NCBI GenBank assembly: GCA_003344405.1
Contig: NOWV01000100.1
Span: forward strand, 124,001-188,000
Direction: 5' to 3'
Origin: Trichoplax sp. H2
Lineage: Eukaryota
Length of the DNA: 64,000 bases
A program made the translations under genes and the position numbers. The notes under the pieces were generated by a model that made no database searches, was not told where the DNA came from, and saw nothing but the letters and a program-made list of their open reading frames with translations. Below are positions 3,101 to 57,344 of this stretch, in pieces. Each line of letters opens with the position of its first letter. Position 1 is the first letter of the stretch.

Positions 3101-5334
3101 CGATTTTGAACAAGATATTGTGGCTATCCACTTCATGTAAATAATCGGACACTATATTGTGCTGTATCTAAGGACAATTGTTAAGGTAGAACTGTTGAAT
3201 TGATTCAATTATCCTTCTCCGTTACTTATTTACTGTCCGGCTATTGCTAGCAGTAGTGAGCAAGGGCGCCGATGGTAACAGCGTGAGAGTCGATTTTCTC
3301 TTATTATTTTGTCGTCAATAAAGTAATAACTTTATCGCTCTTCGATGTATTTCCACCGTATTTGTACGTGAAACTGCAAGTTAGCCCTGGATGACAAGCT
3401 TGAAATGCATCAAGGTAACATACATGTAATACCATAAATGAAATATATTAAAAATAAATAATTTCAAACCTATAAATATACTCTGATTTCCTGATTCTTG
3501 CATGAGGACAGATCGAGTAAATAACGACGATAGTGCATATTTATAGCTTAACTAGAAACTCACTTTAGTCTTGCAGTATCTACAATTTATCGCTAATAAC
3601 ATTACTAAGAATTGGTAACCTGGCGTTGATGTCATACTGAGAGCCTTTAAGTAACATTATAAATTTCTAAATCGCTTTCAAAGGACTCTGTTCATACGAT
3701 TTTAGCCTACAGGCTTATCTCGAGTAATTAGGATCCAGGAATTAATAACCTTCTTCATGATAATATATCGCTAAAATATTAATTAAAGCCAGATATATCG
3801 CCATTAATTACGAATATCACCGATTTATGACAATGTAGCATTAATTCCTCAACAGAATTTGCTCGGAACATAGAGACTTTCCATTTTTATTTAAGGTTTT
3901 TATCACGTCTTTATCGGCGATACGGGATCAATGTTATGAAAAAGCCCTTATTTATAAACTCTACCAATAATTTCTTAATTAATGCTATAAATTGCACTTG
4001 AAGATGACTTGAGAGAGAATGATAATATATTAGCTCTATTAATAGTATGCTTTACAACCTTAAATTTCATAAAATTTAAAATTACCGTTGCCAAACTAAG
4101 ATATTACTGTATAGACGAAAACCTTTAAAAAATGATAATTTCATATTGGTGGTGGAACAAATTAGACATATACCATCTCAGATGAAGCCGAGTCTCATTT
4201 CTAAATTGCTATGGCTACGATAAATTTATCAAATGCTATTAATTCTTGAGTTATTGATAATAAAAATTTATTCTTCAATATATCTCATAATAGAATGGAT
4301 AAATGAGTAAAGGTTGCCGTTATGTATTCTTAGTCAATATGGTACCTATTAGAATCGTTGTCTCACTTTAGGATTGCCTTAATTGAATTCTTCTATATTT
4401 TTATTTAAGTCTACTTAAAATCGTAAAAGTGAAATTTTTTCACTGTTATCCATTCAGATTACCATTCAACTATGTAACTTAATTAGCACTTTTCTTAAAT
4501 TACCAAATATTATTGTGTGGAAACTGAAAATAGTCATCAATTTTTCTACTATTCTATTCTTTGAATAAATTGTAATTTAATATTAATATATTACTACCAA
4601 TCGTAGTAAAGAGTAATAAAAGTACGTTATTATAATTGTATTGAAAAAATTTGTACGTTTTCTAAATTTATTTCATTCCTCTTTCCTTTTCATTTATTTC
4701 AGGTATATAAAATATATTCACATTTATTAATGATGCCGACTTGCTACAGCGTAACGTTTTAGATTTATTCATAGACTAAAAATGATGGAACTAAATAGAT
4801 AGCCGTGATAAGGAATAGTAGCTACAATAACAGCCTTCTATAATTTACTACTGTATATCGCTAATTTATGACTTTCTCGTTACATACAATAATATTATAT
4901 GTCAATTATTCAATTTTTTTATATCTATCATATTTCTTACTAAGTAAATAGCTCGATCAAGAAACTGATTTTATATATTAGCTATCATTGCTATTAAATT
5001 GATTACTAAATAATGATATTTCACTTTATTAATTCGGTAATTCTTGTATAAATTGATAATTTAATAATAATATCATCGATCTTTTCAATTTTTCTTCTCC
5101 TTAAGACGGAAATTGCTCCAATCTTTACCTATTAAAATGTACTGGAAAGAAAGGGCAATAATTCATAATCCGATTACCTTCATGTCAAGCTACATCATCA
5201 GCCTTAAAACTCTCCTTGAAAAAGACTAATAAATTTCAATCTAAAGATTTTCATTAAATAGTCGTTCTCACATAACCTCATAACTAAACTATTTCTAGTT
5301 GTATCGTTTAAAGTACTGAAGTCTTTTCATTAAA

Positions 5335-6411
5335 ATGAACACGTCTTGCAATGATGACAACCTTACGGCACCAATATCTTATGCTGTTACTCTGGGTGTC
5401 GCCTACGGTGTTATATTTGTATTTGCGGTTATAGGTAATCTCAGTTTAGCCATCGGGATTATTCAAAACTGGAGTAAAATGAAAACACTAATGAATGTGT
5501 TAGTGGTCAATTTAGCTATATGCGATTTGGGATTAGCCATTATTGGCATGCCTTTTACTGCAGTTCATGATATTTACTTATACAATCCCCTTGGCGCTGG
5601 ATTCTGTTTTGTATGGTTAATCGCTATGGTTGCATTTTGGTCAGCTAATATGATAACAGTAACGGGAATTGCTATTGAGCGTTTTGTTAAAATTATTCAC
5701 CCGGAAAAAGCCAAGCTACAAGCCAAAGGTGGTATTATCTTGGTAATCATATGTTGGATTATATCATTCGGCATGGCTATTCCATACGCACTTGATATTG
5801 TTAATCATTATGATAATCGCCAAGATCGTATTATATGCTATAATATCCAATCCAATTTGATTGGTCGTCGGGCATTCATCATCTTTGTATTTGTGTTCTT
5901 TTTTATCGTACCCGTTTTGGTCAATATCATGCTCTATTCCATGATTGTCTATTTCATCTATTCTAAAGCAAACGAATTAAGATCTAGAAGTGAGAATCTG
6001 CGCAAAAGAAATAGTAAAGTAGTTACAATGTTAATGATGGTTGTGGCATTATTTATATTATGCTGGTTTCCATTTCATTTATCACAATTATTACTGAAAT
6101 TCGAGCCACAAACTTTGTGCCCATTAAGTGGTCGAATTTTTATTGCCATTTGTAATTGGCTAGCGTTATCTCATTGTATGGTTAACCCTATCATATTTGC
6201 TTCTCGGAGCGAAATTTATGGTAAGGTAATGGCGGGTGTTTGTAAACGTGGAAAGAACCGAATTCATATTTCGCCATCTGTACTCAATACTGATACGCAC
6301 TCTGCTGCTGCTAATAAACAAACCATTAGAAAATATAGCCTTAATGACGATCGAAAAAATCGAATACAACCTGTGAAGTTGCGTCGTTCCGCAACTGTAC
6401 AGAAATTTTAA
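5335..6411 (+). CDS. Rhodopsin-class (class A) GPCR, peptide-receptor-like, intronless CDS
   Basis: 358 aa with seven hydrophobic segments. Motifs: GN (TM1), NLAICD (TM2), IAIERF (TM3), CW (TM4), LCWFPF (TM6), NPIIF (TM7). N-terminal N-glycosylation sequons NTS and NLT. Confidence 0.95.
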   Translation: MNTSCNDDNLTAPISYAVTLGVAYGVIFVFAVIGNLSLAIGIIQNWSKMKTLMNVLVVNLAICDLGLAIIGMPFTAVHDIYLYNPLGAGFCFVWLIAMVAFWSANMITVTGIAIERFVKIIHPEKAKLQAKGGIILVIICWIISFGMAIPYALDIVNHYDNRQDRIICYNIQSNLIGRRAFIIFVFVFFFIVPVLVNIMLYSMIVYFIYSKANELRSRSENLRKRNSKVVTMLMMVVALFILCWFPFHLSQLLLKFEPQTLCPLSGRIFIAICNWLALSHCMVNPIIFASRSEIYGKVMAGVCKRGKNRIHISPSVLNTDTHSAAANKQTIRKYSLNDDRKNRIQPVKLRRSATVQKF

Positions 6412-12667: not shown

Positions 12668-13633
12668 CTAAAGCGGAAGATTAGCTCTGGTAAAGGATGC
12701 ATTTGCTAATCTAGCTCGATCGTAGACGAATAATCCAACACAAATAATACATACAGTTATGATAGAAAACCATGACATGGCGTAGCCAAAGATAATCCAA
12801 GCAATCAACGTTGTCATGGATAATTTAATGATCTGAATGAACTGAGTTGATATTCGAGATGATTGAAAGAAAGTGATGAAGTGGAGGAGAATCCAGGCAA
12901 AGATTAATGTTGCATTCAATATTACTAAGACAGTATAAGATAGGCTGATAACACTTGATAACTTCCATACAATATTGTATTCAAAGAGGATACAATAAAC
13001 CAAGACGATGCCACAACTAATACGCGTGGTTGCATGAAGTAAGACCAACGAATCGAGCATGACTTGATGAGCTAAAGCATTCAATAAAATCAAGCCAACA
13101 CTGCTGAAGACCACGTAGAGCGCAGTGAATAGAAAGGATGAAAATGAAATTGTTTCTTGACTAATAAAGCATAAAATGACACCAGCCATAATGATACCAT
13201 AGGCAACGTACATGATCGGACTGATACTAGGTGCTCCTTTAATTTGGCGTAGTAGTATGGTGATCAATGGTATCAATGATGCAAAAGCTTCAATAAATTG
13301 TACATTGGCTACCGACAAGGCCAAATATAAGGTAGCACAAATTTGCGCTTGAACAACAGCATAAGTTAATATCTGATTATTCACCTTCGAAGGCCAATTG
13401 AATTCACTGTCTAAGGATTTACTACTATAAAACTGGCCAAATTTACTATAGCATAGCATCACATAGGAAGCCAAACTTACTACAGTTAGTAATACAAAAG
13501 TATTAAAAAACGGATAGTGATTGGATGTAATATGCATTAGCCATTTACTGGTGTTGATAAATACAACATGGATAAAAACGGATAGCGCCAAGGAGACTTT
13601 GGGGCTGTGCTCTAAAGTAGTTAAGCGTTGCAT
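12668..13633 (-). CDS. SLC35 / triose-phosphate-transporter (DMT superfamily)-like membrane transporter, intronless
   Basis: 321 aa with about 9-10 hydrophobic segments. The N-terminal 'NTSKWLM...YPFFNT' and later 'SLIPLITILL' and 'IIKLSMTTLIAWIIFG' segments resemble SLC35/TPT members. The ATG at 13633 is preceded by an in-frame stop. Confidence 0.75.
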   Translation of the reverse strand: MQRLTTLEHSPKVSLALSVFIHVVFINTSKWLMHITSNHYPFFNTFVLLTVVSLASYVMLCYSKFGQFYSSKSLDSEFNWPSKVNNQILTYAVVQAQICATLYLALSVANVQFIEAFASLIPLITILLRQIKGAPSISPIMYVAYGIIMAGVILCFISQETISFSSFLFTALYVVFSSVGLILLNALAHQVMLDSLVLLHATTRISCGIVLVYCILFEYNIVWKLSSVISLSYTVLVILNATLIFAWILLHFITFFQSSRISTQFIQIIKLSMTTLIAWIIFGYAMSWFSIITVCIICVGLFVYDRARLANASFTRANLPL

Positions 13634-14099
13634 GATGAAGGTTTACAACCGACTGTTGAAGATGGAGAGGAAAAGATTAACAAGACACATAAAGTAATGA
13701 ATCCAACATCCACAAAAAAGATATTGATTTTGAATAAGAAGCAATAATGAATGAATGCTGAAGAGAGAGATTGAAAGTTGGCAATCAAAACAATCAATCC
13801 TTTGATTCTATACCAAGTTGCAACTGTATTGGAATCTATCGACACTGATCACTCCTATCGTTGGATGACTTCAAAAGAATGGCGCAACCTTATCGTCTTT
13901 TAAAAGACAGAGAGCATTGGCTTAAAGTAATCGTTTGCTAGTAGTGGATTTTAGCCAATATTGTTGGAGTGAGTTCTGAGCCAGCACGAAGAGGGGCCAC
14001 AGCAAATCAATCGACTCCAATCAATCAAATCTGTTGCATCGGATCGATGCCACGCAAGACGGAAACAGCAGTGCCACTGCCCATTTTGCTTCCAGCCTC

Positions 14100-15648
14100 A
14101 GTACCGTGCATACTTTACGGTACCGAGTAGTCTGTCTGTCTGTCTGTATGATGGGTCTCACTTCAGCTTCCAGTCGAGTACAGTACATTGTACGCCCAGT
14201 GTACAGTGTACAAAACTTCCAGTCTGTACTGTACGGTAAATCATACAGTACAATGAAAAAATGATGTTGTCCTGGACTAACATTAAATGTTTGTACATTT
14301 AACAAATGTACATTTTGTTGTACAGTACTGTACTAACATCATTTGTCATTGGAGTACTGTACAGGTAAAAGGAAAGAAAATGTTTTAAGGTTCAACTGGC
14401 ACTATGCTAACGTTAATGTCAGTCTATTATGCCAACGATGAGTATCAGACATGAGCCATAGAGCATTGAGCAGGCGTACTACCGGCATGACGTTGACAGT
14501 ACACTCGTGTCAGACTACCTCAAAGCAGTACAATACTGTACCCAGAGTGCAGTGACGTTACTTACTCTACTCTACTATGCCAACGATGAGTATGAGACAT
14601 GGGCCATTGAGCATTGAGCAGGCGTACTACCGGCATGACGGTCACAGTACACTAGTGTCAGACTACCTCAAAGCACTACAATACACAGAGTACAGTACGT
14701 ACTGTACAGTGACGTTACTTACTGTAGTCTACTCTACAGTACTGTACTGTATGCCAACGATGAGTATGAGACATGAGCCATGGAGCATTGAGCAGGCGTA
14801 CTACCGCCATGACGGTCATAGTACACTAGCGTCAGACTACCTCAAAGCAGTACAATACACAGAGTGCAGTGACGTTACTTACTGTACTCTACAGTCTCTA
14901 CTATGCCAACGATGAGTACAGTATGAGGCATGAACATTTGAGCATTGAGCAGGCGTACTACCGGCATGACGTTGACAGTACACTCGTGTCAGACTACCTC
15001 AAAGCAGTACAATACACAGAGTGCAGTGACGTTACTTACTCTACTCTACTGTACTATGCCAACGATGAGTATGAGACATGGGCCATTGAGCATTGAGCAG
15101 GCGTACTACCGGCATGACGGTCACAGTACTGTACACTAGTGTCAGACTACCTCAAAGCACTACAATACACAGAGTACAGTACGTACTGTACAGTGACGTT
15201 ACTTACTGTACAGTACAGTAGTCTACTCTACAGTACTGTAACTGCAGTATGCCAACGATGAGTATGAGACATGAGCCATGGAGCATTGAGCAGGCGTACT
15301 ACCGCCATGACGGTCATAGTACACTAGCGTCAGACTACCTCAAAGCAGTACAATACACAGAGTGCAGTGACGTTACTTACTGTCCTCTACTATGCCAACG
15401 ATGAGTATGAGACATGAGCCATGGAGCATTGAGCAGGCGTACTACCGCCATGACGGTGACAGTACAGTAGGGTCAGACTACTGATCTGTCTCTACTGTAC
15501 GTCTCTACCTCTGCTTTGTTGAACGACATCGAGTCTTGAAGCACTTTGGCCATTGGTGTGCAGCTGCAATCTTCGCCATCGTTAAAGCCTTTTCCACTTA
15601 TTTCCTACTTGATACTGATTTGACGTCGACTATCTTCTGACTATCCCA
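14100..15648. promoter_or_regulatory. Probable bidirectional promoter region for the SLC35-like gene (-) and USO1 (+)
   Basis: Lies between head-to-head start codons at 13633 (-) and 15649 (+). It is more GC-rich than the flanks and dense in TACAGTA/TACTGTA. Transcription start sites cannot be located from sequence alone. Confidence 0.5.
14429..15481. repeat. Minisatellite, 7 units of ~145-195 bp, between the divergent SLC35-like and USO1 genes
   Basis: The anchor ATGCCAACGATGAGTA recurs at 14429, 14577, 14751, 14903, 15056, 15249 and 15392. Shared core: GAGCATTGAGCAGGCGTACTACCG...GTCAGACTACCTCAAAGCA. The last unit is truncated. Confidence 0.97.
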
Positions 15649-29000: not shown

Positions 29001-29294
29001 TAAAGTGGAAAAGTGTATCAAGTCAGATCGAAATGAAGCTTTAAGATAAATTTACGCCACTATTAATGAAAGTTTTTTTTCAAGAAAATTCTTCATAAAT
29101 GTTGTTATCCTTTGCAACTTAAAAGAGATACAAAAATTTTATATTGATTAACGAAGGTTAAATAACAGAAGTTACACGAATAACACTGTTGACAACTTGT
29201 ATCATTCTTAATTAGAAAACAATATCATTCAGTTATAAGAATTTCAACGGATATTAACTTCATTTCATAAACAATTAGTAATTCAAGCCGCACC

Positions 29295-30323
29295 ATGCCC
29301 ACGCCGGATGTCAGTTTTAATAACAAATCAATTCAGTCTATGCCAACCATCCCTACATTGGCAGTACAACTTACTGCTTCGATACCATCGGCTATAATCT
29401 TGATTTTTGGAATAACTGGCAATCTAGCTATCATCATAACCATGATTCGATATCACAAAACTAAAAGTAAAGAACGTTTCTTTTGTTTAATTGGCAATCT
29501 AGCAGGATACGACATTTTCATTCTACTCTTTTCAATGACCCTTAAAATGACAAATTACTTTATTACTTGGCCTTTTGGATCATTTCTATGCCATATCTAC
29601 AACGGCTTTCAAAGTTACTTTATGGCTGGCTCTGCTATCACAATGACATTTATGGCACTAGAGCATTACCGTGTTGTAATCAAAGAAGTGAATGCTTATA
29701 GCAAAAGTAGCGGAAAAATTATTATTACCGTAGTGATAGCGCTAACAGCATCTATTTGTGCTTGTCCTAGCATTATCTATTCCAAGTATGTATCTCACTC
29801 AGAATCTTCAGTAAAATGCTTCATTCAATTTTTTCAAGATCTTAACCAAGATAAAATAGTATGGCAAACTTATCGAAATTGTCGTTATGTTATTTTCTAT
29901 CTCTTTCCACTTATTGTTGTTGTAACAACTTATTTTCAAATGTTACTAACATTGAATCGATATTCAAGGACGTCTTTGGCAGAATATCATTTAACGAAGG
30001 TCAAAGAGCAGAAAAATATCATGAAAATGATTTTATATACCAACGTAACATTTGTCATTTGTTGGACACCTTATTTTATGTATGGTTTCATTGTCTATTT
30101 CAATCATACGATTGATGATGGCATACAACTACATCGGCTAATTCGAGTAGCTTGTGAACTAATTGCTTATATCAACAGCGCTATTCATCCATTTATCTAC
30201 GCTAAATATATGCCAATATGTCGACAAGCATTATATCGCCTTTCATGTTTTAGACAATCGCCATCGTCAAATTCAAACTGTGAATCAAGTACTAGTCACC
30301 ATGTTACGGTAACCAGTTGCTGA
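29295..30323 (+). CDS. Rhodopsin-class GPCR, intronless, related to the 48763/53661 pair
   Basis: 342 aa, 7TM. Motifs: GN, NLAGYD, WPFGSFLC, ALEHY (at the DRY position), ICWTPY and HPFIY (at the NPxxY position). The start context is CACC-ATG. Confidence 0.93.
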   Translation: MPTPDVSFNNKSIQSMPTIPTLAVQLTASIPSAIILIFGITGNLAIIITMIRYHKTKSKERFFCLIGNLAGYDIFILLFSMTLKMTNYFITWPFGSFLCHIYNGFQSYFMAGSAITMTFMALEHYRVVIKEVNAYSKSSGKIIITVVIALTASICACPSIIYSKYVSHSESSVKCFIQFFQDLNQDKIVWQTYRNCRYVIFYLFPLIVVVTTYFQMLLTLNRYSRTSLAEYHLTKVKEQKNIMKMILYTNVTFVICWTPYFMYGFIVYFNHTIDDGIQLHRLIRVACELIAYINSAIHPFIYAKYMPICRQALYRLSCFRQSPSSNSNCESSTSHHVTVTSC

Positions 30324-34495: not shown

Positions 34496-34640
34496 AGTAC
34501 GGCTCGGTACGGTACGGTACGGTATTTACTTGGACAGAGTTGGACTCAGTACAGTACTGTACTGTACAGTACAGTGTACAGTATAGTATACAACGTAGAG
34601 TACATAGTACTGTGGTGCTGTACTGTAAGATACAGTACCA
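34496..34640. repeat. Cluster of TA-C(A/T/G)G-TA pentamer units upstream of RCC1L
   Basis: GGTACGGTACGGTACGGTA and CAGTACAGTACTGTACTGTACAGTACAGTGTACAGTA lie within ~150-300 bp of the RCC1L start. Confidence 0.9.
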
Positions 34641-35311: not shown

Positions 35312-35794
35312 AAGAACTAACCATCATTACAAACTTATACGGGTATATCACCAAACTACAACGACATTGCTACAATAATTATAAAAATTAACTGTTATCA
35401 CCTAACTAAAACAATATTGCTAGATTAATTATAAGGATTAGCTATCATTATATATATCACTAAACGACAACGACATTGCTAGAATAGTGATAAGAATGAA
35501 CCATCATTACATATATATACATGTTACGGATAAACGTACCTACAACGATTTGCTAGCATAATTATAAAAATTAACCATTATTACATACTGTATGTTGCCG
35601 TAACATATATACATATAAAATAATAAGAATGAACCACTATTACACATGCAGTAAATATATATTACCAAACTAAAGTGACATTGCTTGATTAATTATAAGA
35701 ATTAGCCATCATTACATATATATATATGTTATATATCACCAAACTACAACGACATTTGCTAGAATAATTATAAAGATTAACTATCATTTCATAT
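35312..35794. repeat. Degenerate AT-rich minisatellite, ~8 units of ~50-75 bp
   Basis: AAGAATTAACCATCATTACA-like anchors occur near 35312, 35384, 35433, 35492, 35566, 35625, 35697 and 35772. They are interleaved with ACAACGACATTGCTAGAATAATTAT-like blocks. Confidence 0.88.
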
Positions 35795-36839
35795 GTAATT
35801 GGCCATCCAAAAATATCAAAATGATTCTAATCTTTGCTTATCCCCTCTCGGCTGATTTGTCAACTATTATACAATTGCGCGTGTTGAAAAGGTACTCTAA
35901 TTGACAATATTTTAAAATGTTATCGTTGTATAATAGTCGAAGTATCACCCGAGAAGGTACTGTATAATCACATACTTTGCTCTAGATAAATGAATATATA
36001 TGTTACGTATGTTATGTATACATATCCATTTATAATACGTGCATTGTTACTAAGTTTGATTATGGTACAATGACTATACTAACTTCTAAAGCAAATTATA
36101 ATAGCAGCCTAGACAAATAAAAATAGGTAGCATAGATGTACATGAATTGAGTTTATCTTGAAAATATCTACATATGCCTTCTCCATCATCATAACTGCTT
36201 TCCGATGAATATTTTTAGCCGTTAATCACCACGGAAGGACTTAAAATGATGATAATATATCAGTACACAATATTTCTTTTATTGGCAGAATGATCTAATT
36301 CCGATGTCAGCTATGTGGTAGTTACCTATAGTAATTACCGGATTTCAACTAATTCCATCATTGTTTTTGCTATACTACGCGTTCTTACTGAATTGTCACC
36401 TGAATGCCAATATACACCATGCAGTGGGCATGTGATTATTCAAATAATTTGAATAATTTTTATTATTGCGTAAGAGGGAGCCGTTAACCCAATAAAAGAT
36501 GCCATGAATAATTAATTAACTTTGCTAATCAATTGCTTTTTCAACTCCTTGTTACGATAGGCTGTAGTTACAAGTAACGTGAAAGTTATGTGAACTAGCC
36601 AGTTGTAACTTGTAACTGTGCCTAGTAGTAATCGAAATTTTACTTTCTTCGACAAGGCACGAACTTTAAAGGTCATTTTACTACATATAATTCTTTTAAG
36701 ATATTGCTTCAACTATTCAAAACCATCTATAATTATGATAACGTGAAGAAATGAAACAACAATAACGTTGACGTCAATTATTCCCACTGTAATGTGATAG
36801 CTGATATTGCTATCAAAACTTCTACAGACAACGCCAGCA

Positions 36840-39800
36840 ATGAACGTCAAAATCAAAAACAGAAGTCAACATGCGATCGCCAATGAAAATTTTAATAATG
36901 GTAACTACCAAGCTGCACTTACATTGTACATGCAAATACTGGAGGACTGTCGCAAAGTTGATCATCAAATCGACAAGGCAACCCAAGCAGATCTATGTAA
37001 TGCCAACTTAAATGTTGCCAAAGCCCACTGTATGCTTTATCATAGCCAACAAGCAAATCACTTTTGTTGCCAATCACATCAATTAGCTAAGCAATTAACC
37101 GATAATCACTTAATAGTAGCCGAATACCATGATTGCTCTGGTGATATTAAAAGACTGGCTGGTCGATATTGTGAAGCATTGGTAGAATATCAAGAATCGT
37201 TTAGTACTAGAATTAGCGTCAAAGGAGAAGACAATCCGAGTACGGCAAAGTCATTTAACAAAATTGGTAAAATACTTTATTTACAACAAAAATATAATGA
37301 ATCTCTTCACATGCAGCAAAAAGCACGTAATATTTTATTACTACAAGTAGATAACAACAATATTCCAAACATCGATATTGCCGAAGTTTATTCCGATATC
37401 GGAATGGTTTACATGTCACAAGGAAATTTATTAGATGCAAGCATTCTATTTGAGAAATCGTTACTCGTTATTATTAAAATATTAGGAGAGAATAATCTAC
37501 GAGTAGCGGATATATATAATAAACTTGGTTCGGTTTATTTAATGCAAAATCAATTAGAAGAAGCTACAGCTATGTTTAAAAAAGCTTCTAATATAATTAA
37601 TGAGATAATCGGTCTGAATACTTTAGAAGCAGCTACGACTTTTAATAACTTTGCTAGAATTCAACTAGCGCAAGGCAAATACGACGAAGCCGAATTAATG
37701 TGCTCAAAATCTTTGAGTATACAAATAGTACGATTAGGGAATAATCATTTAAAAATCGCAGAAACCTATACAACTCTAAGCCAAGTGTATAAAGGAGTCA
37801 AGAAATACAATGAAGCAATAGATGCCCTACAAAAAGTCATAAACATGCAGCGTATGATATTAGGCGATAGGCACTTGATCATTGCAGAATCTTACTTTAA
37901 TATAGGTGAAATTTACGACTTACAAGCCAGCTATGACGATTCGCTATTATTTTATCAAGTATGTTTAAAAATTCGACTAGAAATTAGTGGGGATATGGAT
38001 GAAAATGTGGCCAAAACCTATCATCGTATCGGATTAGCCCAGTTCTCACTAGGAGAATATAACAATGCTCTAAATCACTATCATCATGGATTACGATGCT
38101 ATCTAGAAATGATTGGATTTCAGAATTTAACTGTAGCTTCATTACTTAATGATCTTGGACTTGCTAATCAAAAGTTAGAAAATTATAACGAAGCAATTAG
38201 CGTTCATTCTCAAGCTATATCCATACAACGGCGATTGCTGGGTCAATGCAATTCATCTTTAGCTTCATCATATAATAGCATTGCAATAGCTTATCAACTG
38301 AATGGCAACTTTAACCAAGCTATATGCATGCTACAGAAAAAATTAAAAATTCAGTTAGTATTACTGGGAAAGAACGATACAAAAATTGCTAATACATACA
38401 GCAATCTCGGATCGTTATATCAACTACAAGGTAAATATGTTGATGCATTAGTTATGTATAAAAAGTGTAAAAAAATTCTACTCAAAGTCTTGGGTAATAA
38501 CAATATAGATTTAGCAGAATCACACCGTAATATAGGATTCATTTACATACTACAAGGTCGATATGACGATGCAATGTCATTACTTAGGCAAAGTTTACAA
38601 ATTTATTATGAAAAACTAGGCCAAAATGATTTAGAAGTAGTTAAAGTGTATGAGAATATCGGATCAATATACAACTGCCAAAGAGATTTCAGTAGCGCAT
38701 TAGGAGCCTACCGGAAATGTTTAGCAATAAAGCTAACGCTGTTAGGAAATAATCATTTTGATTTAGCGGTGACTTATAGCGATATTGCTTCTATTTATTA
38801 TTCAATTGCTCAATTCGATCAAGCTCTAGGTTCTTATGAGAAATGTTTAAAAATTCAAGAAAACCATCTTGGTCTCGATCATTTACAAGTAGCAACAACA
38901 TATTATAATATTGGAAAGATATATTATCTACAAAACAAGCAAGATACCGCTTTAGCTATGTATAACAAGTGTAAAAATATCCAACTGAAAAGTCTTGGCG
39001 AAAAAAATCCTACCATTGCTAAATTATATATCAGCATAGGATTAGTACATGTATCGAAAGAGCAATATGAAGATGCTATGTTGTTATATCAGAAAGGATT
39101 AGCAATTCAAATAAAATATTTGGGTAGTAATAATTCGCAGACTGCATCGACTTTATCAAATATAGCATCAGTCTACAAAGCTCAAAATAAATTTGATGAC
39201 GCTATATCTTTATATAACAATTGTATTTCTATCGAAGAAGAATTATCGGGTGATCATCATGGATGCATGATAATATTATATCAAAATTTGGCCTCAACCT
39301 ATGAATCATGCGATAAATTAGACGATGCAATCAAGGCATATCACAAATGTTTAAATATTCAACAACACCTATTTGGAGAAAATAGTCTCCACGTCGCTTC
39401 CACATTTAATGATATTGCTTCCATTTACGTCAAGCAAAGCAAGCACAACGATGCAGCATTTCAATGTGAAGAAAGTATTAAGATACTTAATAAAGCTCTT
39501 GGAGATAAGAGTCTACTAGTTGTAACTATGTATAATAAATTAGCAAATATTTATGCAGAACAAGGGCACATAGATAAGGCTTTAACCACATTACATCAGA
39601 GTCTGGACATCTTTCTAGCACTTCGAAAAGAAAAAAGCTCCAAAAATGAAACTATTTTATTTCGAGACGCCTTAGAATGCAAACAACAATTTAAATGTTT
39701 TGATCAGATGTCATTATTACAAAAGACCGTCGATATTCAACAGAATTTTTTGGGTGACTACAATTCACTTGTTTCTATGTCAAATCATAACTCTGGAAGC

Positions 39801-40253
39801 ACATACCTAGCAGCAGATAGATTAGATGATGCATTAAAAATTTGCAACAAATGCTTAAAAATTCAACGGCAAATTCTTGATGACAACCATCCCGCTTTAG
39901 CTAAAACCTATTATAAGCTGGGGATAATTTATCTACAACAGGACAATCATAAGGATGCTCTGAGCATGTTTCAGCTATCTATTGATATCCAAAATAGAAA
40001 TGATGACGATAACGATGCTCTGTTAGCCAATTGTTATCAAAGCATTGCTTCGATCTATAAGCTAAGCGGTAATAAAACTTCAGCAATCATGATGTACGAT
40101 AAATGTTTAAACATTCAGAAAACTCTATTTGGAGAAAGTTATCCAAATATTTCCGAAATTTGTCAAGAGCTGAATGAAATCGCTATAACCGACTCGCGTA
40201 AGTTCTACAATATTGAAAAAATAATTAGCCCACAATGTGAATTTTATGTGTAG
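36840..40253 (+). CDS. Large intronless tetratricopeptide-repeat protein (42-aa, kinesin-light-chain/nephrocystin-3-like TPRs)
   Basis: A 3.4-kb ORF with first ATG at 36840. The consensus A.TY.NIG.IY..QG.YD.AL.MY.KCL.IQ...LG.N recurs about every 42 aa, roughly two dozen times. No other domain is recognisable. Confidence 0.95.
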   Translation: MNVKIKNRSQHAIANENFNNGNYQAALTLYMQILEDCRKVDHQIDKATQADLCNANLNVAKAHCMLYHSQQANHFCCQSHQLAKQLTDNHLIVAEYHDCSGDIKRLAGRYCEALVEYQESFSTRISVKGEDNPSTAKSFNKIGKILYLQQKYNESLHMQQKARNILLLQVDNNNIPNIDIAEVYSDIGMVYMSQGNLLDASILFEKSLLVIIKILGENNLRVADIYNKLGSVYLMQNQLEEATAMFKKASNIINEIIGLNTLEAATTFNNFARIQLAQGKYDEAELMCSKSLSIQIVRLGNNHLKIAETYTTLSQVYKGVKKYNEAIDALQKVINMQRMILGDRHLIIAESYFNIGEIYDLQASYDDSLLFYQVCLKIRLEISGDMDENVAKTYHRIGLAQFSLGEYNNALNHYHHGLRCYLEMIGFQNLTVASLLNDLGLANQKLENYNEAISVHSQAISIQRRLLGQCNSSLASSYNSIAIAYQLNGNFNQAICMLQKKLKIQLVLLGKNDTKIANTYSNLGSLYQLQGKYVDALVMYKKCKKILLKVLGNNNIDLAESHRNIGFIYILQGRYDDAMSLLRQSLQIYYEKLGQNDLEVVKVYENIGSIYNCQRDFSSALGAYRKCLAIKLTLLGNNHFDLAVTYSDIASIYYSIAQFDQALGSYEKCLKIQENHLGLDHLQVATTYYNIGKIYYLQNKQDTALAMYNKCKNIQLKSLGEKNPTIAKLYISIGLVHVSKEQYEDAMLLYQKGLAIQIKYLGSNNSQTASTLSNIASVYKAQNKFDDAISLYNNCISIEEELSGDHHGCMIILYQNLASTYESCDKLDDAIKAYHKCLNIQQHLFGENSLHVASTFNDIASIYVKQSKHNDAAFQCEESIKILNKALGDKSLLVVTMYNKLANIYAEQGHIDKALTTLHQSLDIFLALRKEKSSKNETILFRDALECKQQFKCFDQMSLLQKTVDIQQNFLGDYNSLVSMSNHNSGSTYLAADRLDDALKICNKCLKIQRQILDDNHPALAKTYYKLGIIYLQQDNHKDALSMFQLSIDIQNRNDDDNDALLANCYQSIASIYKLSGNKTSAIMMYDKCLNIQKTLFGESYPNISEICQELNEIAITDSRKFYNIEKIISPQCEFYV

Positions 40254-43200: not shown

Positions 43201-45477
43201 ATATCAAATTGTGATTTTAGGTTAATAGGATTTATATAACATAAAAATTGAAAATTTTTCATTACTTTTATTAGTAATCATTGAATATATTGCAGAAAAT
43301 TAAGATAGGTCAATATTGCCATCATCTTTCAATATGACACGCAACGGATTAATTGGACATGTGTCTGACAAATAATTACCATAAAAAAGAGCATTTTATC
43401 ATGGAGAATTATATGCAATTTCTTTCGCTAGATGCTTGCTAATTTGATGTTTACTGTTTCATATCATAATCTGTGCAAATTGATGTAAATTTTTTACTGG
43501 GTTTTTTCGATAATTATAGACTATGTATGACATGATAACTTCACATCATTTGGTCTATGAAGTTTATTTTTAAATTAATTTAAAACGAATAGACAGGTAT
43601 AAAATACACGTATAAAAGATTAACAAATAACCTTTACAGGAACTTGGTATTTAAAATTTCATGACAAAGCAAGAAAAGGATTCCTCTTAGTTACATCCAT
43701 ATTAATCATGGCGATTATTTTTCTACGTAATTTCCTGCTCATAAAACATTAACTTTTTCCGTTTTTTCCAAAAAATTATATTCGACATTGTTTATATCAT
43801 TTAGACAACATCGAATTAGTTAATACATTGGGATTCATAATCAAAAATCTAAGTATTAAAGATTTTCAAATAGCGAATTAAGAGGCCTGTTCTTCGCTAC
43901 TGAAATTGTAGTCACAAAAGAGCATTTGAGTAGAACATTTAACTGCATACTTTATGATTACTTAATGATTACGTTATATGTACAGTATTAGTGCTTTCGT
44001 ATATTGATAAGCAGAATTGAAGGAAAGAATTGAAATTTCGTTGTGTTTATGTGAAAGTCCAGGACTGGACTGTACTGAGGGCTATTTTAAGGTATAATTA
44101 TTATCCATAACATTACTTCCTTTCGATTTTATCGATTTAGGTTTGCTTTTGATATCAAAATATTGCGACATACATGAAAAATTTACCAATTCATAATTTG
44201 AATAGGCTTTATGCAGCAAGATTAATACTGTTTACGATCTGATACAATACAAAGAGTATCAAATATCTATTGTTTGCGCGAATTATTCCCTCAAAATAAT
44301 TCCATTATGATATAGAGTATAAAGCGCTGCTATCGCATTAATTGCAATTCATTATGAATTAATATCAATATTCTCAGTGAAATAGTCATGATTTTGACGC
44401 TTATAATACTAGCATCCTAACAATAAAATCAGAATTTCAATGATTTAAGAATAAAGGAAGTAATAATTAAGTAAATTAAATATATTGAATATAAATAGAT
44501 AAAATAAAAAATATTAGAGCTATCTACCGTTTACAAGATAAAAATTTAAGTATTACACTAGTTTACGTGACTAACCGTGTAAATTAATTAAAATACAATT
44601 CGCTTTAGTTTAATTTCGGGATGTCGAAGCCTTCAAAATAAAATTCTAAACTGTTGCTGTTGTAGTTTATGTCACCTAATTACTATAAAATATTATAATA
44701 CAATATTAGAGTTAGCGAATTTATAACGCTATGTTAAGTAGAATAATTTCAAAAACTACAACATTACAATAATCATTCACTTATTTTCTATCTAATATCA
44801 GAGTATCGAATAAATATTTGATTATGCTCTGGAGAACGAATAGTAGATAGCGTACTCACTCATATAAGATTTTGCGGTTAACTGTAAGTGCCGGCACGAT
44901 CAAGCATTGCACTTCTGCAAATACGATGTTCTTAATACTCAGCTAACAATTGCGGACTTCTCTTACAAACACAAACCAATACCCTCTATTTAACGTAACA
45001 GAAACATTAGAGAAGGTAGTCTTAAAAATTTGACCAGATCTAAATCGTTAATAGGTATGTGCCTCATTTTATCGGTACCTTTGGAAATCATCTAACCATC
45101 AGCATTAAATGAATTAAATGTTCAATCCTTATATTCAGTTGTATTTGCTAATCAAAGTATCAGCATATTTTTTAACATGCTATTGAAAAATAGGTTTGGA
45201 TATAATCTTTCGACTTTTCTAGTCTTTGAGAGCAAGGCAGTAATTATATTACTGTAAAAAATTTTCCCTACGCCGATCAGATATCAAATAGTTTACTAAG
45301 GAAACAATGTGAAAATTCTCTTTATTAGCGACCAAGTAATTTAATCCTTAATGTCATTTCAGATTAACTTGCTTTAATGACAGCTAGAAACATCACGATA
45401 TTTGAGTACATTCACAAAATCAATCCATTAATCATAAATAAGTAAACATCTTGCCGACTGTAATGAAATGACAAGTG

Positions 45478-46437
45478 TAGAGATCAAGCTACAAAACTTT
45501 AACAAACTTTGATTTCACTTTCGTTGCACTCCGGTCGACTTAGCAAAACTTTGACACCAAATAAAATTTGAGGAAATAACCGAACAACAATTTATTACAA
45601 AACAAAAATGGAGAGAAGTATAAACCGAACAACCTTACAAATACTTAGCTTTAGGTATTATTATTATAAATGACAGACTTAAAAACTGTCAACGACCAAA
45701 CAACCTTTCAAAAAGAAGAACGTTTTAACTTACGACAATTTGACCCCGAAGGCCTTTTAAATTCAATAAGTTCTTCAAATAAAATCTTCTTCTGCTCTTC
45801 CTCCAAATTTTCTAATTGCATTATCATTTATAGGCTTCGTAGAGCCGTCAGAGGTATTTAAAACTAAACATTTGCTAACCAACCGCTCTTAAGATCCGTT
45901 TTAGAAAACTACTTTGCACCGTTTATCGCCATTTAAGTAAACAAAAATCATTCAAAGTTCAGACACAATTTACCCTACGATTCCCTTACAAAACACTATA
46001 AAACTAACAAGCTAACTATAAAAATACATCAAAACTTCACTTCTAACATAATTTCTATCATTAATACACTATAAAAGTCTAAAAATCAACCTTTAAACAT
46101 CAAGATTTAGTCATAAAAATAACATTCTAACTACTTAACAATCAACACAACCTCTGCCAATTTCCATCTTATTTTCTATTTTTCCTCACTAAATTCTCCT
46201 AATGTGACTTCAAGTCACGTCATAAAATTCCAAAGTTTCAAATTCATAACAAAAAGTCCAAATTTCAAAAATCAACTCTTACGATATTTTTCATAAACTT
46301 AAATCCAAAATTTACAACAGAAAAATTATATGACATAAATTAAAACAGGAAAATTATATCGGACACAAACCCGACCGGTTCCAGAATCCGAAAATTATAT
46401 CGGACATAAATCCGGAAAAATTCGGTTTTTATAAAGA
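45478..46437 (-). mobile_element. Candidate non-autonomous Helitron-like element
   Basis: A compositionally distinct ~960-bp block that is strongly G-poor on +. The minus strand begins a|TCTTTATAAAAACCG. A subterminal direct repeat GAAAATTATATCGGACA occurs at 46349 and 46390. An imperfect stem GAGATCAA...TTGATTTC sits at the other end, which terminates in CTAC rather than the canonical CTRR. Confidence 0.4.
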
Positions 46438-48762
46438 TCACAGTAATCGCTTATCGAAAAAATTTATATGACTATTACGACTACTTTTCTGACATTAGTA
46501 TCGCTTAGTATTCGCGAGTATTGACAGTTGTTTAGCGTCAGATTGTACTGTAACTGTACGATTATAGACTACTGTACATTACAGTACTTTATCGTCATGT
46601 TATAAATCCCCTTTCTCTAAGGATAGGGTTTTGCTACTAAGTCAAATTCCTTTACAATTTGAATAGACGATCAAACGCCCTTTCTTTAGATTAGCCATTT
46701 GCTCTAGGGCTACTTCGATAGTAATCTATATAATACCTTGTAAAATAATGAAGAAGAAAAGATGGCGACATGATGATTTGGCAGGGTAAAACTTTAAGAC
46801 ACTATCACTTTCTAGGTATTTTCTATAGTAAAATAATACTAGTTACATACTAAAAGCTACAAAGGACTCTACTTTTAGTCCTTTACTACACGGCAATTAC
46901 TCAATAAGTTATCTCTCTTTATGTGAGTAACGAAAGCATAATAAAAATATAATAATAAGCTCTAACTTCTATTGAAATTATAGGTATAATAAAACCATAT
47001 TATAGGTCTGGCGTGGATATTAAACGGCTTTATCTAGATTCAATATTGAGTAGTTATATCGATATTTTATAAAGTAATGATCAACCATCACAGTCTGAAA
47101 AACGAAACACCATCAGTTATCTTGTTTTACACAATAGCCCAGATGCATTTTATTTTATGGTAAATAACACGAAGCAGGTTATTGCTTCAAACTTGCTTTT
47201 CAGAATATAGATAATTTAATTATTATTACCTTTAAGGTGAATATGCAGTAAATATATAATTTCAAGCTAAAGTTATCGTCAGGATAACTTTAGGTAATGT
47301 AATTCTAACGCCGATATGAATTCAAATGGGCGTTATGCTTACTGCATGCGTTAACTTAACGTTGCTGATTTTTAAATAATTACCAACCATAGCTCGACTG
47401 GAAAATAGAATAATATTAACAAGATTATTTCTTTGAAACCTTACAAATTATGCGCAAGCTACTTAAACTTGGATATTCATTATTAATAACTTTGTTGTCC
47501 TAAAGAATGTACGAAGGTGAACATAACGTAGTGATAACATTTTATCGCAACTGATATAAGGATCCATTGCAATGTGAATTATTCCATAAGCACTGTAAAT
47601 AATGTCTCAGAATAACACGGATCGAAATTAATATCACAATTAAAAATCGAATAAGTATCATTCATCACAATGAAATATCATAATTAAAAACACATGTTAT
47701 GCACGAGTAATATTAAATATTTAATATTAACACATAAATAGAATTATTTCGGTAAAATGCAATTTAAAAAAATGTAAATGTTAACAGAAGGAAAGTTTCA
47801 TGTACCTATCTATCGTAAGTTTTTCGTTATCAAAATTTGGCAGACATATTATTTTAGGTTATTAGGAAGACCTGATCTTCCAATCGGTAAATCTTTACTT
47901 TATTTCCAATCACATAAGCGTTTATACAACGAATCAGTAGATCTCTTATACCTAGCTGTGTGTTAGCAAATAATAATTATATTTTATTAGTTTGCTCGGT
48001 AAGTATCTGACTGTGTCTACAACAATATTATACTGTAATCAAAACAATCTATTAGTCATAAATATAAGTTGACTATAAGGCTAAAATCATTCGGTAGTCA
48101 CATTTCAATTCTTACTGCACATCTTATTACGAAGCTTAGCAAATTAAGAGTAGTTTTTGTAATTAATTTATTATGAATATTGATATGTAATTAGTATATA
48201 CTTAATATAATAATTTATTGATAGATACTGCATACGATAATATTATCCTTAAAAAGATAAAGTATTCTATCTAGTACGGTACATTGAATTCTACCGGAGA
48301 AAATACTTCGGAATCCAAGGTAATGTTTATTAATGATCTGCCATTTTTAAATCGTACGTATTAATACCAGAGTGGTAGATTTTTAGGTTACTACGGCCTC
48401 ATCCTGGTTAAAATTCGTATCCTTAGATCAGTTATTATGTTACAATGCTGATAAACTCTGCAATTTTGCTGAAATTCTGCTTTATCCTTGATTCTATTTC
48501 TTAATTTTTTTTAAATTAAAAGAATGTTCTAACTCACAGTGAGCAGCACCTACTTAGCGCTAGATATTCAGCTTTCGGACTATTATTTGTTGATTTATTG
48601 TAATATAGATCATAAGCTCAAGCTATCAACTTCCCTGGGGTAAACTACATTGACAAATCTGAACGAAAATTTCCCGCATAGAAAACTTCGCAAATTAGAT
48701 AGTAACAAATCAGTTCCCGTATATAAACGTGTTCAAATTATTCGAAGTTTACGCTATATATT

Positions 48763-49802
48763 ATGTCAGCCAATAATATCCAACTCAGCAATGAAACAAA
48801 CCATCAACTGGTATCGCTATTAGGACTTCGACTTATTGTCGGTATACCTTCAGTTATTATTTTTATCGGTGGTTTGATTGGAAATATATCTACTGTATTT
48901 ACTATCATTCGATACAGAAGAACGACAACCAAAGATCTCATGTTCTACTTAGTTGCTAATTTAGCAATGTATGATATTCTTGTCATGTTATTTGCTTTAC
49001 CAATTACAGTTATCCGAAAATTAGCTTTCACATGGCCGTTTGGAGCTTTCCTGTGTTATACTATAAATGGTTTCCCTCCTTTCTCGGGAATAGGCTCAGT
49101 AGTAACTATGGTTTCTATAGCAATCGATCGCTACTATGTCGTTTTACATGCAGCAAATCCAAATCCGAAAGAGAAGAAAAAGGGGCTAATTCTTTCAGCA
49201 ATATTTATAACAGCGCTAGCCGTTGCTTCACCAGCATTTATATTTTCAAAATATGATGACTCTCAATCAACTCCTTATTGCGATATTGTTTTTTCTACTG
49301 ATTCTGCCGTTCAAATTATCGGATGGCGAATTTATATTACATTATCGAGTATTCTGATTTTATTTCTACCAGTTACGGTCGAATTAATCATATATGTGAA
49401 GATTTTACTGGTTTTACGGCAAAGATCGAAAAATATTACAACCCGATTCAATTATGCATATGTTAAAGCTCATAAGTATACCATCAAATTGATGTTGTTA
49501 ATGACTATTACTTACATTTTTACCCATGCTCCACTATTTATTTGCTATCTTATATATCATTATCAAGGTATATCAACCGAAAATGTTATACTATTTTAAC
49601 TCATATTTGTTATCGCACATTTTTATGTTTTTATTCTAAAAGTTTAATTAACCCTATAATTTACACTGGCTTTATTCCTAAACAAAAAGAGCGACATATT
49701 TATATATTTAGCTTTCAATTTTTAAGGCCTTGTCTGTCGAAGAATTGTAGCTTGAATTTCAAACGAAATGCTGTTGCTCCTAAAACCATCTCGACGACAT
49801 AG
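48763..49802 (+). pseudogene. Class A GPCR pseudogene, paralogue of 53661-54698
   Basis: Aligned to the paralogue, it has CAA->TAA at 49597-49599 and a +2 T insertion at ~49621-49624 (CATTTTTATGT vs CATTTATGT). TM7 (LCFYSKSLINPIIYTGFIP) continues in the shifted frame to TAG at 49802. Confidence 0.85.
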
Positions 49803-51200: not shown

Positions 51201-53660
51201 ACATAGCTGATGATTATAGCAAACAGCGAGTACTGTAATAACTAAATACAGTAGCCTATATATGAATGTGAAGCAAGCGGATTGTAGATATGTCTAAATA
51301 TAAGAGCAATACAACATGTCTATATTTAAGAGTAGAATATAGTTACAGTATATTCTAAATACACTACATACATAAATACAGCTATTACTCAATTCGTGTA
51401 TAAGGCAATATTATGTCTTTGTAATAAGGTCGACTATATCTTATTCTACTCTACTATTATAACTCACAACAGAATTAGGCAAACTGAATAGAGATAAAAG
51501 TCTGCTTTATCATACAGAAAATTGTGCAACACACGAATCTATTTCTAAGCTCTAATTGACTTTCTAGCCCACCAATGGTTTCCTTACATATGCTTAATTT
51601 TTACATCGATCTTAGTAAAATGTTATTCCTTGTCTTGTCAGAGGGTCTCATATCATGTTAATCTCTTAATTTATATCCCTCATGTAGACAAGATCTTATC
51701 TGTTTCATGAGATTGCTTATGTTTATAATAATTAAATTAAGATGAAGTGAGTAGATGTTATATGGTATGATATCACTTAATATTCCCAGTACACAGATAT
51801 TTACATAGATACATGTAAGAAAATAGTGTTGTATCCAATTTAATAAAATAATTTTATCCTTACAGTTATTCAATTAAGAGAGCATGTGTGTGAGTTTATG
51901 TGTCACTAATGCCGCTATGCCTCTAAATTAACCTGAAAGTAAGCAAGTTTATAATAAAATAATATCATTTTATTGTAATCAAATATGGAAATCAATATCA
52001 TAGCTGATACCATATTTATCAAGTCCTCTGTGAAATTTTGGCAGGATATCAAGCATAACGTCTTAACTATAACAAAATAAAATGAAAAGTAAAAATCGGA
52101 AGATGCATGTCATGTTTTCTATGTCATATGCCATGATTTTTTTTAATAATGCCTGTAACATAACTACGATGATATGCTAATTAAATCTAGAGATCTGCGA
52201 TATTATCTGCTAATTACTATGTCAATCTTCTGATAAATGAGATATATTAAAAATTCAAGTGAAAGGTTCAACAAAGCTCTATAATTGGAATTATTACGAC
52301 TTAAAAAACACAGAACGCTAATAACGCAATGATAATTATACGGTATGTCTATGAACAATTATACTAAAATAAAAGGAGAAACTTTACGAATAAACAGAGT
52401 GCTGAGTATCATTGTAAATTATGCATTGGGAAATTTTAGTTCATTTTATATTATCATAGAATATGACCCAGGTCTCCTTTATTGAAACAATTTAAATTAA
52501 ATTAACATTAAAATAAAAGATGCAGTAGAATATTACTTAAAAGATTTTCGTTCCGAAAAATATATTTTGATCTAGAAGTTTATTAAACTCAGATACCAAA
52601 TAATTATACATCTATTCTTTTATTGATCAAAATTAATATCGATCAGATTGTAAGCTGCTGAAAAAGTAAAAAAACGATAATTTATTTTATTGAAAAGGAA
52701 TAACTGAATTAAAATATCAGGTCGCACTTACAGCACTTACTGTAATTTAAACGAAACTAACAGTTATACCCGCAATATCTATTACCACACACGCCCAGAC
52801 CTATAACCTATTAAATCGATTTACTGTATTTCTGAGACATTCGGATTAAAGTCGTATATAAGGACCCGTTCCTTTAATCTTCTAGAATCAAGATCTAAAT
52901 ATATATTACCCTTATTAACTATCTATTGCATTCCCAACAATAATGCACTCAATTTGCTATCAAAAAATCAATTACTGATATCCATATTTGTAATGTCGCA
53001 TAAGCAACATTGCAAATAACATACCAGGTGTGCAATATCTTAAAATGAAATCACACATCCGATTCAAAAGAAAATGGTCAGTAGCATCAATATTTATAAA
53101 ATTATTAAACAATAATACAAATGATTGATTTGCTTCCGATGAAAATCGTAATTAGTTTCATAAAATTTTCTCCTGCATGGTAGCTGATGCATTATATAGG
53201 CGATCCTTAAAACAACAAAAAGAGCTATAATCTTATTAATTTTTTATTTATGCCTTCATTAGACTGTTTTTATTACAATAAAAATGACTTCAAGATCAAT
53301 AACAATATCTAAGTTACAGTAATCTTTAATTTACCAGTTATTAGATCCAATAAGCATTGTTACTTACTTATAATTTCGTAATACTCATTAACTCAAAATA
53401 TATTTACAGCTGAGAGAAAGAGTATAAATTAGAAAATCATTTGTTGATCAAATCAGTCTACTTCAATTTTAATCTTCAAATAATCTACTGCTGACTCAAT
53501 TATTTTCCCATAGAGTCCTTTAGGCCTAAGCATTCTTGTTTACATCTATTGTGAATATACTTCAAATTTTACAGCACCCAAAGATATCAACTTGAACACT
53601 AAGAGTGTATTGGCACTACTGATAGTGTATGTAACATCAAATTTTTAATTCTTAATCAAC

Positions 53661-54698
53661 ATGTCATCCAACCATATTAGACTCAGCAATGAAACAAACC
53701 ATCAACTGGTATCGCTATTAGGACTTCGACTTATTGTCGGTATACCTTCAGTTATTATTTTTATCGGTGGTTTGATTGGAAATATATCTACTGTATTTAC
53801 TATCATTCGATACAGAAGAACGACAACCAAAGATCTCATGTTCTACTTAGTTGCTAATTTAGCAATGTATGATATTCTTGTCATGTTATTTGCTTTACCG
53901 ATTACAGTTATCCGAAAATTAGCTTTCACATGGCCGTTTGGAGCTTTCCTGTGTTATACTATAAATGGTTTCCCTCCTTTCTCGGGAATAGGCTCAGTAG
54001 TAACTATGGTTTCTATAGTAATCGATCGTTACTATGTCGTTTTACATGCAGCAAATCCAAATCCAAAAGAGAAGCAAAAGGGACTAATTCTTTTAGCTTT
54101 ATTCATAATAGCATTAGCCATTGCTTCACCAGCATTTATATTTTCAAAATATGACGATTCTCAATCAACTCCTTATTGCGACATGGTTTTTTCTACTGAT
54201 CCTGCTATTCAAATTATGTGGAGACGAATTTATGTTACCTTAGTCAGTGTTTTGATTTTATTTCTACCAGTTACGTTCGAAGTAGTCTTATATGTCAAAA
54301 TTTTACTGGTTTTACGACAAAGATTGAAAGGTCCTACAGCTCGATTCAATTATGCATATGTTAAAGCTCACAAGAATACCATCAAATTGATGCTGTTAAT
54401 GACTATATTATACGCAACTACTCATACACCGCTGTTTACTTGCTACCTAGTCTATCGTTATGGAGGTGTAGCGCCCGAAAATGTTTTAGTATTTCAACTT
54501 GTATACATCATCGCGCATTTATGTTTCTATTGCAAAAGTGTCATTAATCCTATAATTTACACTGGCTTTATTCCAGAACATAAGCAGTGGCTACTTTGCA
54601 TAATTAATTTCAAATTTATACGGCCTCGCTTGTCAAGTACAAGTATCTTAAAATTCCGGAAAAATAAATGTACTATTGCTCCAGTATCAGCCTCATGA
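53661..54698 (+). CDS. Rhodopsin-class GPCR, intronless, intact
   Basis: 345 aa, 7TM. Motifs: GN, NLAMYD, WPFGAFLC, IDRY and NPIIY. TM6 has THTP in place of CWxP. Confidence 0.95.
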   Translation: MSSNHIRLSNETNHQLVSLLGLRLIVGIPSVIIFIGGLIGNISTVFTIIRYRRTTTKDLMFYLVANLAMYDILVMLFALPITVIRKLAFTWPFGAFLCYTINGFPPFSGIGSVVTMVSIVIDRYYVVLHAANPNPKEKQKGLILLALFIIALAIASPAFIFSKYDDSQSTPYCDMVFSTDPAIQIMWRRIYVTLVSVLILFLPVTFEVVLYVKILLVLRQRLKGPTARFNYAYVKAHKNTIKLMLLMTILYATTHTPLFTCYLVYRYGGVAPENVLVFQLVYIIAHLCFYCKSVINPIIYTGFIPEHKQWLLCIINFKFIRPRLSSTSILKFRKNKCTIAPVSAS

Positions 54699-57022: not shown

Positions 57023-57344
57023 ATAGCAGCATATTAAATTTCCATATATTAATCCAGTTATTCCGGGTCTGAGAGGATGAAAGGGGAAATTAGTAAAATT
57101 AAACATTGAAAATTGAAAGCGCGATACATGAGATACCTGCAATATCTAAATACTAGTTATATCACGTATAATTTGCTGTGTGCAGCTTCACCTTTTTTAG
57201 TGAAAGTAACCTCTTCTCATAATGCAAATTATCAAAAATAATTATAATATCACCAAATTAAAATGTTATGCTAAACTGAGTCAGCATGAAACGCTAACTT
57301 CTATCGTGAATACATTACTGGAACAGCGTAAAAGCTGGATTTAG

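Follow-up and report, generated by a model that had tools for sequence, protein, structure and literature searches.

The minisatellite array and its five-base insertions

We analyzed a 64,000-nucleotide stretch of the Trichoplax sp. H2 genome (contig NOWV01000100.1, positions 124,001 to 188,000; hereafter the window), which contains a non-coding minisatellite array at 14428–15480 (no strand assigned). The array comprises seven units of 90–193 bp in the order (ABC)(ABC)C', with individual lengths of 148, 174, 152, 153, 193, 143, and approximately 90 bp. It occurs as a single copy in the assembly, and its remaining genome matches are short and confined to parts of the array rich in the word TACWGTA (W being A or T), here called a scar. 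The units differ largely by 5-bp insertions that turn TA into TA-CAG-TA or TA-CTG-TA, which had been predicted from the sequence to be excision footprints of Tc1/mariner transposons. [quoted passage not shown]

Alignment of the three youngest sister pairs of units (u1/u4, u2/u5, and u3/u6) revealed 8 substitutions in total and 5 indel events that amount to 6 TA-CWG units (30 bp). The other indels in these pairs numbered three, with sizes of 1, 3, and 9 bp. The statement in the original prediction that most of the length variation between units is of the TA-CWG type was borne out, at 30 of 43 indel bases, and the letters at the six array sites that it cited were found in place and as described.

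Individual sites were read on the + strand. TA-CTG-TA was gained in unit 1 at 14534–14540; it lies two mismatches from both neighboring pentamers and is the best non-templated case in the array. TA-CAG-TA at 14917–14923 and TA-CTG-TA at 15047–15053 were gained in unit 4, and TA-CTG-TA at 15127–15133, which adjoins an older CAG unit, was gained in unit 5. Each of these four 5-bp insertions is present in just one of the units covering its site in the alignment, so they represent gains. At 15209–15220 in unit 5, two CAG units were gained after a CTG unit; slippage on the first may have produced the second. The B units are set apart from the other units by a 14-bp stack. The stack TA-CAG-TA-CG-TA-CTG-TA at 14691–14706 in unit 2 is copied in unit 5 at 15175–15190 and is older than the trimer duplication. 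Scars numbered 19 in the 1054 bp of the array, compared with 2.2 per kb in arbitrary genome samples, and six more lie in the single-copy flank at 14179–14361 (no strand assigned), so that the hotspot reaches past the array.

As a caveat, the insertions at 14917, 15047, and 15127 are each one substitution short of a plain duplication, and that at 14534 alone is two away. Because three of the four single examples lie one mismatch from duplication, the array by itself cannot exclude slippage, and the case was therefore made genome-wide.

Scars and five-base indels across the genome

Scar abundance in the 94.9-Mb assembly was estimated from 21 stretches of 10 kb at arbitrary positions. TACWGTA was observed 468 times against 95 expected, far ahead of every other TA-nnn-TA word, and 190 of the 468 scars lay more than 50 bp from any other. 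The excess over the reversed-word control (51) extrapolates to approximately 188,000 scars genome-wide (bootstrap 119,000–267,000). Scar density was 0.38 per kb inside long open frames compared with 2.14 outside, a 5.6-fold difference that is expected because 5-bp insertions shift the frame; reversed-word controls showed no consistent depletion in these frames. In the arbitrary samples, G before and C after the scar were enriched. The similar counts of TACAGTA and TACTGTA (222 and 246) were dropped as a test, since the two words are each other's reverse complement and their equality genome-wide is not evidence. Scar-dense bins had a G+C content of 0.371 compared with 0.32, and no sign of promoters was evident from the CpG ratio (rho -0.14). 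Separately, TACGCGTA was enriched 8-fold (36 vs 4.4) in a subset of the arbitrary samples (L042–L081) and absent from long open frames; it may be a word of promoters or else represent another class of footprint.

We further examined indels between paralogous copies in 69 sequences (682 kb, approximately two thirds of them picked for scar clusters) that gave 128 paralogous alignments. An indel was kept only when at least 8 of 10 bases matched on both flanks, and the rest were dropped. Indels of 3, 4, 5, and 6 bp numbered 9, 9, 39, and 5, respectively. Among the 5-bp indels, 24 of 39 converted TA to TA-CWG-TA, as would 4.7% of random 5-base deletions, in agreement with the predicted excess over other 5-bp indels; loci at arbitrary positions alone gave 6 of 8. 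Also in agreement with that prediction, the insertions are not merely perfect duplications: 18 of the 24 TA-CWG rows departed from the neighboring pentamer, by one mismatch in 6 rows and by two or three in 12, the latter being at least two bases off both neighbors. These 12 rows correspond to 11 events, two rows being one event in sister units. No CAG or CTG was present within 20 bases in 6 of the 24 rows. Two TA-CWG insertions lie in a single copy of a dispersed repeat; four other copies do not have them, and they are therefore gains. Public contigs of four sequencing runs were also compared with locus L028: of the 32 listed pieces, 10 carried two or more gap letters, the number being a multiple of five in 6 of them, a weak hint in that the runs share events and paralogous repeats swamp the table. 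The array unit had 0 matches among the metagenome contigs scanned.

The rate of scar gain was expressed per substitution. It was 7/528 in arbitrary pairs, 20/989 in selected pairs, and 6/8 in the array. If a perfect 7-mer is assumed to persist until any one of its bases changes, the 188,000 scars correspond to 0.0139 per substitution compared with the 0.0133 observed, so that two independent estimates agree on approximately one scar per 75 substitutions. With the mutation rate taken as 5e-9 per base and generation, 20–30 elements would each need approximately 2-3e-4 jumps per generation. Such a rate would probably be within the range of active elements.

Neighboring units in stacks were alike in 434 of 730 cases (59.5%) and switched in 296. 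Among chains of at least three units, 129 of 170 were mixed, compared with 143 if orientation were fully independent, and 41 were pure. The mixed chains together with the excess of like neighbors indicate that orientation was mostly chosen afresh, with some slippage. Of the stacking that the original prediction ascribed to independent, often nested events, part is slippage. Telomerase-like addition was ruled out by reasoning, as chains switch orientation.

Fillers between canonical units were absent in 56 cases and otherwise included C or G (29/39), CG, CA, or TG (48/63), and CAGTG or CACTG (71/111). The 71 CAGTG/CACTG fillers compare with 4 of CACAG/CTGTG, the products of a dinucleotide slip, and they would fit the joining of two CAG overhangs that overlap by a single base. 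This evidence is supportive, not decisive, because deletion at the center of the palindrome TACAGTACTGTA gives some of the same words. For Sleeping Beauty, the parts of the report available (10.1101/659086) list minor footprints including TATA, TACTA, TAGTA, TACATA, TATGTA, and TACGTA beside the dominant TACAGTA and TACTGTA. These short footprints are the commonest short fillers between Trichoplax scars; the Trichoplax scars differ from that published set in being natural, genome-wide (approximately 2 per kb), and nested in stacks, and in adding CAGTG/CACTG.

CAG-ended elements and candidate transposases

A scan for TA-CAG...CTG-TA returned one perfect inverted repeat, at L025. Genome searches gave 46 matches from 24 candidates, with 32 pattern hits compared with 1 in the control. 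The family has approximately 20 copies: 9 are two-ended and 132–198 bp long, and about a dozen are solo ends. The CAG-terminated, TA-duplicating elements that the original prediction called for are thus present in the genome. Of 28 distinct ends, TA-CAG preceded the conserved TATGTC in 21 and CTG in 4 (p = 0.0009), with other letters in 3, and three of the deviant ends were read as a scar within the TA of the terminal inverted repeat (TIR) itself. Median end identities were 98.7% and 95.6%, and the copies are young. Among the scar fillers described above, the ratio of one-mismatch to perfect units was 51:343 (approximately 5% decay per base). This decay is older than the youngest MITEs, so that activity would have been long-lived or have passed through successive subfamilies.

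A sister lineage consists of solo long-TIR ends (L161, L164, L165, L167, and L147:470-700), with approximately 15 copies (15 pattern hits, 0 in the control), none of them paired. Its ends begin TA-CAGTG or TA-CAGGG, and CAGTG is also the commonest 5-base filler. It shares the TIR interior with the MITE family, and in 3 of 4 copies its TA-CAG occupies the alignment column of the MITE TA-CAG; since so diverged a lineage aligns TA-CAG in this column, CAG is the true terminus. TIR homology extends over approximately 190–200 bp.

The ends lie among scars. Each of the 26 MITE ends tested, a set that left out the copy that led to the discovery, had at least one scar within 100 bp, and scar density there was 54.6 per kb, compared with 18.7 around a random scar and 2.4 around a random TA. 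Canonical ends directly adjoined another scar unit in 14 of 21 cases. Five copies with paralogous flanks were aligned for an empty-site check, of which 2 were uninformative. L142 showed a clean insertion with TA duplication, the paralogous flank supplying the empty site.

Links between these ends and transposases were one-sided. One TIR directly adjoins a transposase remnant with a WPARSPDL motif. By eye, a 159-nt sequence in the Trichoplax adhaerens supplement of PMC2871265 is identical to the remnant at L091. A sister-type TIR lies approximately 1 kb downstream of a near-complete rosa-like copy with one stop. Homologs of the rosa-like transposase carry DUF4817, one of them being named DD41D and one being named from Trichoplax. 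The catalytic spacing was 43 residues at L040 and 41 in the DD41D-named control. At L040:954-1998 (+) lies a rosa-like DD43D transposase without TIRs, in which a 7-base duplication shifts the frame in this assembly; the matching row in the accessible T. adhaerens supplement is in frame at this junction. The L040 gene is a candidate for a trans-acting or host-kept transposase source. A supposed 5-kb element across two TIR pieces on C574 was rejected, as no further transposase sequence lies between them.

In the portions of the rosa DD41D and LTIR DD40-41D description available (PMC5490172), these elements have a D-terminated triad, a WPxRSPDLTPLD motif, long imperfect TIRs, and MITEs formed by internal deletion. 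The Trichoplax elements share the triad with its motif, the long imperfect TIRs, and the MITEs. They differ in a spacing of 43 rather than 41, which falls outside the DD41D/DD40D triads, and in the TIR length given above, compared with 28–32 bp in rosa and approximately 460 bp in LTIR. In the Trichoplax genome, no complete rosa/LTIR-type element was found. Sleeping Beauty transposase is a DD34E Tc1 enzyme, whereas the transposases linked here are rosa-like DD43D.

Other transposase genes were also observed. A single Tc1-type gene at L018:4573-5739 (-), with HTH_Tnp_Tc3_2 and DDE_3 domains, a probable intron, and one in-frame stop, is unrelated to the rosa-like copies. No TIRs were found around this gene or four other DDE loci. 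Three pogo-like open frames were considered as a source and rejected, having no link to CAG ends. Long Tc1-like and pogo-like open frames without TIRs occur at L141 (369 aa), L019:4096-5181, and L015–L017; those at L141 and L019 appear to have no catalytic residues, and all of these frames are possibly domesticated genes.

Origin of the scars and other features of the window

We consider it likely that the 5-bp gains were left behind by the excision of a transposon of the Tc1/mariner superfamily with CAG...CTG ends, and that the published ACAGT microsatellite of Trichoplax consists of such scars taken together. The genome does contain exact TA-CWG gains that have no template, stacks of mixed orientation, and, where the stacks are densest, a young family that has CAG ends and duplicates TA. 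Excision as the writer of the scars, local re-insertion, and the identity of the enzyme are what we infer. The reading of the array as an excision record is supported with a change of scope: the same process extends over the whole genome, in which the array is just one hotspot with empty-site controls of its own.

According to the proposed mechanism, insertion of an element at a TA duplicates this dinucleotide, as seen for the MITE at the one clean empty site. Excision would leave two 3-nt CAG overhangs, and end-joining would convert these into TA-CAG-TA or TA-CTG-TA or, more rarely, into C, G, CG, CA, TG, CAGTG, CACTG, or no filler. This chemistry is known from Sleeping Beauty and is suggested here by the filler spectrum. 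Every scar would then add a TA beside G or C, the context enriched at scars, and local re-insertion would build stacked hotspots, some of which slippage would amplify, as the modest excess of like neighbors suggests. The mobile elements are likely the approximately 20 short long-TIR MITEs and the related solo ends, presumably derived from rosa-like DD43D elements. The array would be one such hotspot, in which duplicated units keep the before and after states.

On a wider scenario we are evenly divided. Trichoplax, although regarded as having hardly any active transposons, may harbor a promoter-focused, long-lived mutator. In this scenario, a few dozen MITEs with CAG ends move over short distances and do not multiply, and a DD43D transposase that has no TIRs and is possibly retained by the host mobilizes them in trans. 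Every scar would be an improved target, approximately 200,000 scars would have become the dominant simple repeat of the genome, and insertions would arrive at about one per 75 substitutions, approaching one per substitution where hotspots like the array have formed.

Several observations weigh against the excision origin. Among the aligned flanks, L083 has a duplicated TA but CTG at its left end, and in the comparison of L085 with L060 the site lacking the MITE carries an additional CAG unit, which is suggestive but could also come from slippage; the 5 aligned flank pairs contained no unambiguous filled-versus-excised pair. No MITE ends were found within the window, and the MITE could be a TA-seeking passenger in clusters of other origin. 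Among the best candidates scored, in one haploid assembly, no intact transposase was found; the rosa-like and Tc1-type copies examined were broken or had no catalytic residues, including the stop-bearing gene at L018, and the 11 genome matches of the rosa-like protein included one that is frameshifted, others interrupted by stops, and fragments. No transposase was found between paired TIRs. Short non-canonical fillers were enriched only between canonical units and not genome-wide, C, G, and CG fillers could arise by deletion as well, and CA/TG exceeded CT/AG fillers by only 16 to 6 (p = 0.052). Most loci in the indel table were picked for clusters, and the arbitrary subset is small (the eight 5-base indels above).

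Alternatively, full jumps might not be needed: while bound to a single TIR end, or to scar stacks resembling one, a transposase might cut and rejoin nearby TAs, adding CWG-TA in place. Scar stacks could resemble an end, since TA plus CAGTA equals the target followed by bases one to five of the TIR. The scar density beside ends, three times that beside an average scar, would also suit such a process, as would the canonical ends that abut another unit, the many copies that are solo ends, and the disparity between approximately 190,000 scars and a few dozen ends. However, the 190 scars isolated by more than 50 bp and the absence of any TIR near the array speak against it, and ordinary jump rates would be enough if activity was long-lived. 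We regard this explanation as improbable.

We consider it no less doubtful that the scars are a slippage microsatellite combined with either switching of templates or repair of hairpins at the palindromic sequences GTAC and CAGTACTG, without a transposon and with the MITE merely landing in TA-rich clusters. The excess of like neighbors agrees with slippage, as do the 6 of 24 indels that are exact duplications and the 6 more that are one mismatch off; all these count against excision. By reasoning, CAGTG, CACTG, CG, and CATG can be drawn as center deletions of TACAGTACTGTA, and the G before and C after the scar would also fit. Slippage cannot, however, write CAG or CTG at a TA that lacks any template within 20 bases, as in 6 rows, only 41 of 170 chains have uniform orientation, the exact adjacent copies are a minority, and a CAG-ended, TA-duplicating element is not predicted.

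The accessible parts of PMC2871265 report that ACAGT makes up 78% of pentanucleotide repeats in T. adhaerens, with 54% of these repeats within 1 kb upstream of genes, and propose a binding-site role. That ACAGT is a selected transcription-factor site gathering in promoters, or that a repair polymerase copies abundant repeats into breaks, is very unlikely: the upstream position and the higher G+C of dense bins would suit selection, but those parts state no null expectation for a gene-dense genome, selection leaves the exact 5-bp, TA-anchored arrival unexplained, including inside dispersed repeats and TIRs, and break copying would not fix length and register. Scars may later have been used as binding sites.

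The excision origin concerns the same motif and genus as that account and differs from it in the binding-site proposal and in that elements are there called inactive. Its accessible parts put transposons at 0.13% of the genome, with none of the elements active and a single MITE family of approximately 20 copies, and cite five Repbase non-autonomous elements. Set side by side by description only, our MITE family may be that family or one of the cited elements. The word "footprint" had 0 hits in its supplements, covered to 400 letters per cell, and literature searches that combined footprints with the motif or with placozoans turned up no proposal of a footprint origin, most subscription journals being outside the search. 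If the excision origin is true, it would answer the published puzzle of why this pentamer is the commonest placozoan microsatellite, and stacked excision scars would be a new route to microsatellite birth. Element counting would then miss cut-and-paste mutational work by orders of magnitude. Scars would provide a datable map of past insertion sites, and the MITE ends make the footprint idea directly testable.

In the remainder of the window, a hydrophobic open frame of 324 aa at 12668–13642 (-) has its 5' end approximately 0.8 kb from the array and no match in Pfam or NCBIfam; the array probably lies in its upstream region. A second scar cluster at 34547–34637 (no strand assigned) mixes CAG and CTG units with a CAGTG filler. 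The scar at 46570–46576 (no strand assigned) is missing from a paralogous copy on another contig (L018). The dispersed repeat at 45464–46891, common to L018 and L059, has one scar difference and no CAG-ended TIR that could be seen. Elsewhere in the genome, another dispersed repeat of approximately 570 bp occurs in at least 7 places (L057:6621-7193, L080, L020, L021, L029, L047, and L081), and four dispersed repeat families had no CAG-ended TIRs. The A+T-rich minisatellites of the window (35312–35798, 56479–57024, 57345–57492, and 58596–58859) are almost scar-free, unlike the G+C-richer array. A single-frame protein of 1150 aa at 36801–40253 (+) has 42-residue repeats, which we take to be tetratricopeptide-like, and no scar within. 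Single-exon frames, presumably G-protein-coupled receptor-like, lie at 48727–49780, 53649–54698, 5320–6411, and 29271–30323; two of them are a recent tandem duplicate, and one is truncated.
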